The notes under the pieces are model-generated. The model was not told the DNA's origin. It did no database searches and was given only the letters and a program-made list of their open reading frames with translations. DNA of 64,000 nt from contig JAAILG010000168.1 of the NCBI GenBank assembly GCA_012026655.1, positions 62,001-126,000 of the forward strand, in the 5' to 3' direction. The translations under genes and the position numbers were made by a program. Source of the stretch: Hydrolagus affinis (Eukaryota). Below are positions 11,902 through 33,090 of this stretch, in pieces (the first letter of the stretch is position 1; the number at the start of each line of letters is the position of its first letter).

Positions 11902-12623
11902 GTAAGTATTGATCTTCTAGCTTCAGTTATTGGGTCCTATGTTTGCTGTAAACATGCTGAAGAAGCATATTGGGTCAGTGAGAGGGGAAGTTGGGAAACA
12001 AAGTTGAGTGGGATTGATCTGACTCCAAGGTAATATGACTGTCAAAGGCAGAGCTGAGTCAAGTTTCAGTGTTCGACTCAATGATTGGATTCCTGATCCA
12101 GGCACATTTTCAGTAGTCCAGGAAACTGCTGATGATTTATTCGTCCGCCTGTCTCAACAATGAGACTGGGAGACAAAGTCAAATCACTGGAGCTTAAGAA
12201 TTCCTCCTCTTAATAACCCTTCGTAATGGATACGCAGACAACATAGATAAGCAGCAGACTGCTACCTAGTACATCATTCTGATACTCTGCACAGATTTAG
12301 ATAGCCAACCCCAATGCATCTTAGGATTCTGAGTAGCTTAGCATCTGCCAACTTGTGCATATGTTCTTCACACATAGACAAACAGGATATGTTTTTCTCT
12401 GCCTTTGTGATTTCTTAGTTCCTGCTTTTGGACCTTCTTAAGCACTGCAAGGTGTTTGCACATGTCTCAGACACCCAGCTGACCTCTACTGAGTATTTTC
12501 TGGACACTTCCTGAAGAAACTGCTGTTTGAACTCTGTAGCAAAGATTCGCACTGGAGAAATGTTTCACATGTGGAAGTTTGCGCTATTCTGTTTACAGGG
12601 ATATATGTCTTTGGTTTTCACAG

Positions 12624-14777: not shown

Positions 14778-14941
14778 GGCCCTTGGAGCAAACCCTCTAC
14801 ACTGTGACTGCAATATGCAGTGGTTGTCTGACTGGGTGAAGTCTGGCTACAAGGAGCCAGGTATTGCTCGCTGTTCAGGACCTGGTGACATGACAGATAA
14901 GCTCCTCCTCACCACTCCTTCGAAGAAGTTTGAATGTCAAG
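14778..14941 (+). CDS. slit2: slit2 coding exon (~exon 26), LRR-CT 4
   Basis: tacag|...|gtattg; 164 nt; [54 protein letters not shown]. Confidence 0.96.
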
Positions 14942-15979
14942 GTATTGCCATAAATTCTTCACTTTCTCTCTGCTTCATAGACATCTTTGATATCAATGCG
15001 AGGAATTAAATTAGAAATGTCTAGTTTATCTATCCAATTGTAATTAGTTATTAGTGAATGGTGAACTTTGATTGTAAGAGTGGCAAAGGGAGCTTTCTGT
15101 AACCTTTAATCACCCTTTGACTTTCTTTTCTTGCCTTTTCTTGCTTGTAATCTAATACTCTTTAATCTTTCACTTGCGACCTCTGTCATCCCAATCCCTG
15201 CCTATAGAGATTCCAGGGCCTTGCGGGTTTTTGGTGCCAGGTAAGCCAGCCGAGCAGCCCTTGGCAATGATGGATGGTGTTAAACGGACCTTCTGCCTCT
15301 CCTTAAATGTGACCCAAAACAATTACCTAAATCCCTCCAGCAGATATGTTTTCCCTAGACTAGCAGTGTCAAGTTTGGAAAGAATGTACAGTTTTCACAC
15401 TTTCAGTCCTTGACCTCTGCCTTCAAACACAAGCTGTGTGTGGGCTTAAGCCTAGGTTGAGTGATGATTGTGGAGCGTTTTGTGTTTGTCTTGAAAGCTG
15501 TATTACTTCTGTGTACACTTTGAAGTTTAATTTCAATTAAAAACAAAATAATTTTTGTGGATTGCAGACTATTTTTTAACAATGGGGCCAGTGATGCCTA
15601 TTTAACACAAAAACAACATCTGTATGCATCACTTTGACTTTGTTTGACACAGCCATTTGCCAGCAATTGTCCACTTATAATCCTTATTGACAATTTCGGA
15701 AAGTAATCTGCAGAAAATTCACAAAAAGAAACAGTAAAAAATGGTTAATATTTACCTTGTCCTTGTAAAAATGCTCTGAGATCATAGCCTATATGAAGGA
15801 CGCAATACAGATTGCGTGGGTTATTTTTGCTGCTAATGTTTGATACTGGAAAAGGAGAAACCTGGTCTTTGATAAAAACAAGTCGATGTCAATGATAAAA
15901 CAGCCCATTGCATTCCTGGTTCTTATGCTTTGCACCACACCTGCAGTATATGAGCCAACACTTGCAAATGTTTATTTCA

Positions 15980-16416: not shown

Positions 16417-16541
16417 GTCCGGTTGACATCGCTATTCTGGCCAAGTGTAACCCTTGCCTTTCAAATCCATGCAAAAATGATGGAACTTGCTCTAATGATC
16501 CTGTGAATTTCTACAGATGCACCTGTCCTTACGGATACAAG
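16417..16541 (+). CDS. slit2: slit2 coding exon (~exon 27), EGF1
   Basis: tgaag|...|gtatgt; 125 nt; [42 protein letters not shown]. Confidence 0.95.
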
Positions 16542-22361: not shown

Positions 22362-22501
22362 GTGCTCATGTGCTGATGGCTTTGAGGGCGAGATCTGTGA
22401 GGTGAATATTGATGACTGTGAAGACAACGACTGTGAAAATAATTCAACGTGTGTTGATGGAATCAATAACTACACCTGCCTATGTCCACCTGAATACACA
22501 G
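22362..22501 (+). CDS. slit2: slit2 coding exon (~exon 29), EGF2-EGF3
   Basis: ctcag|...|gtaagg; 140 nt; [46 protein letters not shown]. Confidence 0.97.
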
Positions 22502-22811
22502 GTAAGGAGTTGATGCCAACTCCGTTTCTCCTAAGGCATGCACTTGTACACACACACATGCATACATTACACATTTTTATACACATACATGTACAAAGTC
22601 ACCATGGATTAGAGCACAATTTTTTCTGTTACAATATGGAACGAATAATGGGAACTAATTCACGTGGCAGTGTTTATTTCCCTGTGTATTTTGTGGTTGT
22701 AAATAAATATCTTTATGTAAATGCAGACATATTGACCTGTTTGAATAATGGCAATTTGTGGTGTGATAGGAAATTATGGTTTATTTTACATATTCTCAGT
22801 TTACTCTGTGT

Positions 22812-26652: not shown

Positions 26653-27162
26653 TGAGGTGGGTGTGCCATAAGGATTTAGATGGTGACAGTTCAAAGTTGA
26701 ATTAAACAACTTGTCAAATTCCAGATTTCTGGAATGATAAATAAATACTGTGGATCTAGGACCCAATGGAATTTCTCCTCACTTTAAGCTGTCTGTTTGG
26801 TTCCATGCTCCAGCCTTTTCCGATATCCATTTGTATTTTTCCTTCCATATATTTAAATCAGTCCACTGCTCAATTGTGGCCCCACAGAGCAGGTTGTTGA
26901 ATACAGGAAACTAGTTGTTAACCTACATCATGGCAGTGGTTTAAATGTACACTGTGACCCATGGGGCTTTTGGCAAACCTAACGGAGGAGACAGTGTAGA
27001 TAGAGAAATACAACAAGAGAGTGGAATTGCATAGGGTGGATTTGCATGAAAACCAAGGACAATTATTGAGTTGATATTTTCTGCTGCATTGTATTGTTGC
27101 AATGTTTTCAAAAGAGTAAACTCAGAAAATCTCTTGTTTCTTCTGTCTCTTGTCACTCCAAG

Positions 27163-27189
27163 CTGCTAATCTGAATGAGGTGGAAAAAG
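27163..27189 (+). CDS. slit2: slit2 alternative 27-nt microexon (AANLNEVEK), exon 28a-like
   Basis: Long pyrimidine tract then ccaag|CTGCTAATCTGAATGAGGTGGAAAAAG|gtcagt; phase 1-1, in frame between ...PPEYT and GELCEEK...; peptide recalled from mammalian Slit2 isoforms (not verified here). Confidence 0.85.
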
Positions 27190-28103
27190 GTCAGTTGCAG
27201 TCTGTTTCTCCCCTTTTCTCTTTCCATCCTGCTGTTAGACAAGGACCATTTTTGTTTCTCTCTTGTTCCTGTCACCTGCTTGTTCCTTGGAAATGAGGTG
27301 CATGCTTTATTTTTCTCTTCCCCTCCCCCACCCCCACCACTCACACTTACTATAAATTTAATTTATTTTTATTTCAGCACCACACTGGTGATAGGGATAG
27401 GGACTTGCAGGTCAAAGTGCAATCCTCTAAAATAAAAGCCCCTTTCAGTGTTTCAGTATCAAAAATTAAATGCATGTTCAGATACAACTAATTTCTCAGT
27501 CCATCGGCCAGTGAAAAGCTGTATCCTTGTGATGCCAAAATTCAAAGTAAAGTTATTGCAAGCTCAAAAGTCAGAGAACCTTATTTGTGACTTTTTTTTT
27601 GTAACTGGTTTAGAGGATCTGTTAACGGTTTAATTCACAATCCGGAAATCACAGTGACTTCTGGTTTCCAACTATCACATTTTCAACCTCATTAGCTCAT
27701 TGATACAGAGAAATAATTGGCCTTTGTCACCATACCAGTCTGCATTTAACGATCCTATTTCTAACACAGAGAAAGAAATAATGTGATTTTTACAGAGCTG
27801 TATCGCATCAACAGGATATAAAATGCCTTATTGCCAAGCAAAATGACTGGTTTTGTAGGCAAACTAATAAGCATATTTCCCTTTTTCACTCAGTTGTATC
27901 AAAGGATATTTTTGAAATAATAAGATTGGTTGATAAATAGGAAAATAAGCATACCAGTGGGGGCAGATTTAAAGAGGGAGAATAGAAAGAGATCTTAAGT
28001 GATATACACCGAGTTCAGGGCTTGGACATTGTTGTATTTAACCTATTATTATCGACATGGGAGGTGGAGGGATGTGCTGTAGAGGCAAAAAACAAATGAC
28101 ATC

Positions 28104-32996: not shown

Positions 32997-33090
32997 GTGA
33001 GCTGTGTGAAGAGAAACTTGATTTCTGTGCCCCAGAGCTGAACTCCTGCCTGCATGACTCCAAATGTATCATGACTGCCCAGGGATTCAA
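32997..33090 (+). CDS. slit2: slit2 coding exon (~exon 30), EGF4
   Basis: tccag|...|gtacgt; 94 nt; [32 protein letters not shown]. Confidence 0.96.

Follow-up and report, generated by a model that had tools for sequence, protein, structure and literature searches.

A 27-nt Slit2 exon in the chimaera Hydrolagus affinis is the likely ortholog of a mouse neural microexon and would lengthen a loop of EGF3

Introduction

Slit2 steers axons at the midline. In the stretch of the Hydrolagus affinis genome analyzed here (the window; 64,000 nucleotides of contig JAAILG010000168.1, positions 62,001 to 126,000), a sequence-only reading had proposed that a 27-nt segment within a long intron of a Slit2 gene is a microexon, raising the question of whether this segment is a genuine exon and, if so, what its inclusion would do to the protein and how old it is. 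Gene mapping, splice-site counts, a survey of Slit proteins, structure models, phylogenetic trees and published data on mouse Slit2 exons were combined to address this question. The 27-nt exon is confirmed. It is likely the chimaera ortholog of a mouse neural microexon, and its inclusion would add a nine-residue, probably flexible loop to the third EGF domain (EGF3) of secreted Slit2-N, a reading to which a probability of roughly 0.85 is assigned.

Host gene and exon anatomy

The elephant shark (Callorhinchus milii) Slit2 protein was mapped to the window by tblastn, and its residues 540-1524 were recovered as ordered exons on the + strand. The exon order follows the sequence of LRR, six EGF, LamG, three EGF and cystine-knot exons, the best match is Slit2, and the elephant shark protein used for mapping clusters with Slit2 in the tree (support 100/99), all of which bears out the original assignment of the host gene. 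Over 46 residues, the EGF3 exon aligns with Callorhinchus milii Slit entries at 100% identity, which places the host close to elephant shark, and two residues separate the two species in the exon that follows the microexon; the matches listed included no Slit2 from a shark or ray. A comparison of the EGF3 exon with solved structures yielded 45 matching sequences, including Notch, DLL1, and coagulation-factor EGFs, with no Slit EGF chain among the matches listed. Several elephant shark and carp-family UniRef entries titled "Slit homolog 1" are of Slit2-type sequence (P0017, P0019-P0021, P0161, P0162).

The microexon occupies positions 27163-27189 (+), 27 nt inside a 10.5-kb intron, with AG on its 5′ side and GT on its 3′ side. 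The upstream constitutive exon (22362-22501, +), which encodes the end of EGF2 and EGF3 as far as the Tyr-Thr of its Cys5-Cys6 loop, has a phase-1 donor at 22502, and the downstream constitutive exon (32997-33090, +) encodes, by translation and elephant shark mapping, the Gly-Glu-Leu-Cys6 of EGF3 and most of EGF4. All three junctions (the exon end at 22501, the microexon itself, and the exon start at 32997) are in phase 1. The microexon is thus symmetric (phase 1-1), and at 27 nt with the frame kept it fits the size range of the SRRM3/4 class of neural microexons (3-27 nt). The frame is free of stops both with and without it, and inclusion inserts nine residues between ...PPEYT and GELC..., a position that a cysteine count in whale Slit2 places in the Cys5-Cys6 loop of EGF3. 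The CU-rich tract, the AG...GT borders, the symmetric phase, and the nine residues within the last disulfide loop of EGF3 had all been described correctly by the sequence-only reading; its title, which set the insert between EGF3 and EGF4, was wrong, since the insert lies within EGF3, as its own text had stated.

Splice sites and regulatory motifs

The acceptor region (27126-27162, +) comprises a polypyrimidine tract (0.87 pyrimidine) and AG, with the preceding AG beginning 39 nt upstream, and the donor (27190-27195, +) matches the consensus at 8 of 9 positions. Both are strong by these values, which are simple counts and not MaxEnt scores. All AG..GT candidates of 9-51 nt whose length is a multiple of 3 and which are stop-free were filtered for a pyrimidine fraction ≥0.75 and a donor matching ≥7/9 of the consensus. 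Among 384 short candidates in the 10.5-kb intron, 27163-27189 is the only one that passes both cut-offs. Applied without the stop test to both introns and exons between 500 and 48400, the same filter returned two matches; the only other short AG..GT candidate in the gene that passes is a 9-nt segment at 12443-12451 (+). The filter is crude, because a 33-nt exon at 15208 escaped it.

The UGC between branch point and AG that is typical of the SRRM3/4 class is absent: there is none within 64 nt upstream of the exon, the nearest lying at -65, and one UGC occurs inside the microexon itself. According to the figures given in 10.1101/2024.09.17.613571, the motif is present in 74-79% of SRRM3/4 microexons and absent in 21-26%. 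A motif scan returned candidate regulatory elements, of predicted function, across 27043-27476 (+). The intron has six RBFOX-type hexamers, three of which (27043, 27299, and 27471) fall within 300 nt of the exon, and a YCAY cluster (27328-27344) lies about 140-150 nt downstream, although with 14 such clusters in the intron its proximity is not unusual by itself. RBFOX- and NOVA-type motifs downstream of an exon favor inclusion.

Conservation of the peptide

A survey was made of 284 proteins with a Slit EGF3 signature, of which 198 were assigned to Slit2, 39 to Slit1, and 47 to Slit3; its counts are of annotations and not of independent transcripts, many rows being isoforms of one species. Inserts of the microexon type occur in 65 of the 198 Slit2-assigned proteins, a figure that includes 7 of 15 lamprey proteins, and in none of the Slit1-assigned (0/39, teleost rows only) or Slit3-assigned (0/47) proteins. 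Two Slit3 rows and one Slit2 row could not be parsed, and one Slit3 row has an unrelated 40-residue loop. Among the 86 proteins assigned to Slit1 or Slit3, P0025 and P0030 are probably misassigned, since their loops are of Slit2 type. Inserts in P0056 and P0084, which start with Gly-Arg and look like intron read-through, were left uncounted. Within EGF1-6 of 200 Slit2-type proteins, the EGF3 site is the sole place with a recurrent insert (66 proteins), other EGF sites having one to three each. Both included and skipped isoforms are annotated from lamprey to mammals.

With a second pattern, by which 180 proteins were parsed, the identical nine-residue peptide was found in 20: in the elephant shark (P0162), the mammal Rhynchocyon (P0191), six birds, lizards, a snake, four frogs, and an eel. 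The sequence-only reading had placed the same peptide in mammalian Slit2; it is indeed present in one mammal, Rhynchocyon, as well as in other tetrapods. The range of this constraint was both narrower and wider than first proposed for jawed vertebrates. Identity holds from elephant shark to tetrapods, but most teleost carriers other than the eel have 8- or 9-residue variants and two squamates have single changes; outside the jawed vertebrates, the insert of lampreys occupies the same site and is 10 residues long. Since the variants add 8, 9, or 10 residues, the frame is always kept. The last five residues, N-(E/D)-V-E-(K/R), are constant throughout and the N-terminal half varies. From these alignments, the C-terminal half appears to be the conserved part of the insert, with the N-terminal half behaving as a putative spacer of variable length.

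The expectation that annotation would easily miss the exon was not borne out, as one of seven elephant shark entries (P0162) and many RefSeq isoforms include it; it is therefore already annotated in a cartilaginous fish. Apart from the two residues of the next exon noted above, the Callorhinchus milii Slit2 isoform UniRef100_A0A4W3I0B2 (P0162) shares the same insert at the same site.

Relation to published mouse exons

In mouse, Slit2 contains a 27-nt exon, MmuEX0043693, reported as nSR100/SRRM4-dependent (PMC4387716). Its inclusion in the wild type is given as 57.5 and 56.8% in cortex and 25.4 and 21.4% in hippocampus, and in the SRRM4 mutant as 15.1, 19.6, 2.9, and 5.8% (PMC4387716 Table S2), and the same paper reports a drop of 29 points without SRRM4. 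The chimaera exon corresponds to it in gene, in length (27 nt, 9 aa), and in location within the EGF region of Slit2-N. The paper describes the nine residues as added to the "fifth EGF domain" (PMC4387716), whereas the cysteine count in whale Slit2 points to the third; the survey contained no mouse protein with the insert, and the match is one of gene, length, and region. As the EGF3 insert is the sole recurrent insert within EGF1-6, it was taken to be MmuEX0043693 under another EGF numbering. On this comparison, the chimaera exon is likely the ortholog of the mouse neural microexon.

The exon also probably corresponds to the mouse "exon 28b" regulated by NOVA2, a match drawn from gene and exon number only. 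Counted back from the last exon in the window, the EGF3 exon is presumably number 28 or 29, depending on the total exon count, which fits the name "28b". Mouse exon 28b, likewise an alternative Slit2 exon, is reported to be altered in mutants of Nova2 but unaffected in those of Nova1, and to undergo a switch between E12.5 and E18.5 (PMC4930328). The name "exon 28a", used by the sequence-only reading, was not found in print for slit2; "exon 28b" is in print. On the receptor side, microexon 6b of Robo1/Robo2 (PMC6687390, PMC12308364) is described as likewise a NOVA-controlled microexon that tunes the Slit-Robo pathway; it differs from the Slit2 exon, which acts on the ligand side, in that its function has been tested.

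Literature searches on slit2, srrm4, and zebrafish microexons returned no paper listed as a study of the Slit2 exon in fish. A 2014 study by Irimia reportedly found many neural microexons to be conserved to sharks. Two preprints on vertebrate exon comparisons include elephant shark, and their main text makes no mention of Slit2. With its annotation across vertebrates, elephant shark among them, and its very probable identity with the published mouse neural microexon, the exon was already known.

Proposed effect on Slit2-N and alternative explanations

By default, the microexon would be skipped, and differentiating neurons would include it through SRRM4, on which the mouse exon has been shown to depend; NOVA2, and perhaps RBFOX, may contribute to inclusion. 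Robo is reported to bind LRR2, and Slit to be cleaved between EGF5 and EGF6 (PMC10084454, PMC12308364). The insert thus lies in Slit2-N, apart from both sites, and the added loop would be expected to leave both intact. Instead, it would alter the junction between EGF3 and EGF4 as well as the surface presented by Slit2-N to co-receptors or matrix, which would tune the range or strength of the signal. The chances that the loop acts in this way, sparing LRR2 and the cleavage site while changing the junction and the co-receptor or matrix surface, are judged to be about even.

Structure predictions were obtained from AlphaFold2 for a catfish isoform with the insert and an eel-like isoform without it. 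In the former, the insert (residues 88-96) is modeled as coil, with pLDDT below 50 at 90-97 and around 60 in the rest of EGF3; in the latter, EGF3 has a pLDDT of 59-70 and no segment below 50. The models, which cover two different teleost proteins, were built from 37-row alignments, have modest pTM values (0.48 and 0.42), and give no geometry for the disulfides; they are weakly consistent with a flexible loop on an otherwise retained EGF3 domain.

The main rival to the flexible-loop reading is destabilization, in which the insert would be a partial loss-of-function switch that disturbs the Cys5-Cys6 disulfide or the folding of EGF3 and so lowers Slit2 secretion or stability. The loop, 8 residues long in almost every other Slit EGF3 domain, does grow to 16-18, and residues 91-100 have a mean pLDDT of only 46 in the model with the insert. 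However, the remaining EGF3 is predicted with about equal confidence with and without the insert, and the sequence, beyond its length, is kept from lamprey to mammals, a conservation that a mere disruptor would not need. Destabilization is accordingly considered improbable.

It is less probable still that the exon serves to remove a glycosylation site. It inserts exactly between Tyr-Thr and Gly in the Cys5-Cys6 loop and so parts the Thr from the Gly, and EOGT is described as adding O-GlcNAc between the fifth and sixth cysteines of EGF repeats (PMC13333300). The consensus given there, CXXG(Y/F)(T/S)GX2-3C, requires a Gly where Slit2 EGF3 has Glu, so the skipped form already fails it; in addition, Slit2 is not among the EOGT substrates listed with it, and no literature linking the EOGT O-GlcNAc consensus with slit2 was found.

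Comparably small, if marginally smaller, is the chance that the exon is conserved DNA that is silent or non-neural in the chimaera. The acceptor without a nearby UGC would fit such a state, which is opposed by the intact splice sites and frame, by a peptide that is the same as in tetrapods, and by the annotated elephant shark isoform with the insert. That the segment is a pseudo-exon arisen by chance, as the abundance of short AG..GT candidates in a long intron might suggest (24 of the 384 being exactly 27 nt long), is refuted by 20 proteins from distant vertebrates whose annotated insert has the identical peptide at the same place.

Age of the exon and its paralogs

In lamprey slit homolog 2-like isoforms (P0110 and six more), the insert occupies the same position and ends in the same five residues; it differs from the chimaera insert in being 10 residues long with a Lys-Lys-Gly N-terminal half, and the lamprey gene does not group with Slit2 alone. 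The exon is included in seven annotated lamprey isoforms and skipped in eight. By BLAST, lamprey proteins are nearest to Slit2 (70%, versus 65% and 63%). In a 21-protein unrooted tree, lamprey joins Slit1 (support 100/99), and a lamprey plus Slit2 clade is rejected (p-AU 0.006). Because this tree lacks a root and represents Slit1 by long-branched teleosts, the grouping with Slit1 may be an artefact. The name "slit homolog 2-like" may overstate the orthology of the lamprey entries (P0110, P0163-P0176).

A Slit3-like paralog in the same genome (L010, G000:C2546, 2371-9684) has the same phase-1 intron after the Tyr-Thr of EGF3, about 3.07 kb long, in which none of 98 candidates passes the splice-site filter or encodes the motif. 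Searches of the fragmented Hydrolagus affinis assembly found no EGF3 exon of Slit1, a result that is uninformative about Slit1. The lamprey copy, together with the absence of the insert from Slit1 and Slit3, indicates that the exon predates jawed vertebrates. As the tree stands, every rooting requires loss from Slit1, Slit3, or both, and loss from at least one paralog is likely.

A second small exon in the same gene

A separate 33-nt symmetric exon (15208-15240, +; phase 1-1) lies between the last LRR cap and EGF1, flanked on one side by an exon that ends at 14941 and on the other by the EGF1 exon, near 16417, and it would add 11 residues, including one cysteine. A frog protein (P0067) carries exactly this peptide, a bird and teleosts have close versions of it, and none of the seven elephant shark entries includes it. 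The exon is preceded by an extended pyrimidine tract and has a UGC at -9, the layout typical of SRRM4. Of 13 proteins matching its motif, 11 also carry the EGF3 insert, a co-occurrence that may only reflect gene models that include all exons.

A combined scenario is possible but doubtful: the microexon would predate jawed vertebrates and at least one of the duplications that separated Slit1, Slit2, and Slit3, would have been lost by Slit1 and/or Slit3, and would have been kept as a neuron-specific switch only by Slit2, where, together with the 15208-15240 exon and its unpaired cysteine, it would give neurons a form of Slit2-N that has a binding or disulfide partner of its own.

Conclusions

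The chimaera copy adds one further species to a known pattern and raises no new question; the new leads are limited to the lamprey copy and the neighboring 33-nt cysteine-adding exon. Loss of the Slit2 microexon has been suggested as a possible contributor to callosal crossing defects, the isoforms being uncompared as of 2015 (PMC4387716). The residues to mutate are the C-terminal five, the only ones conserved from lamprey to mammals. Present in lamprey and missing from Slit1 and Slit3, this exon would be a small example of a splice switch retained by one paralog after genome duplication.
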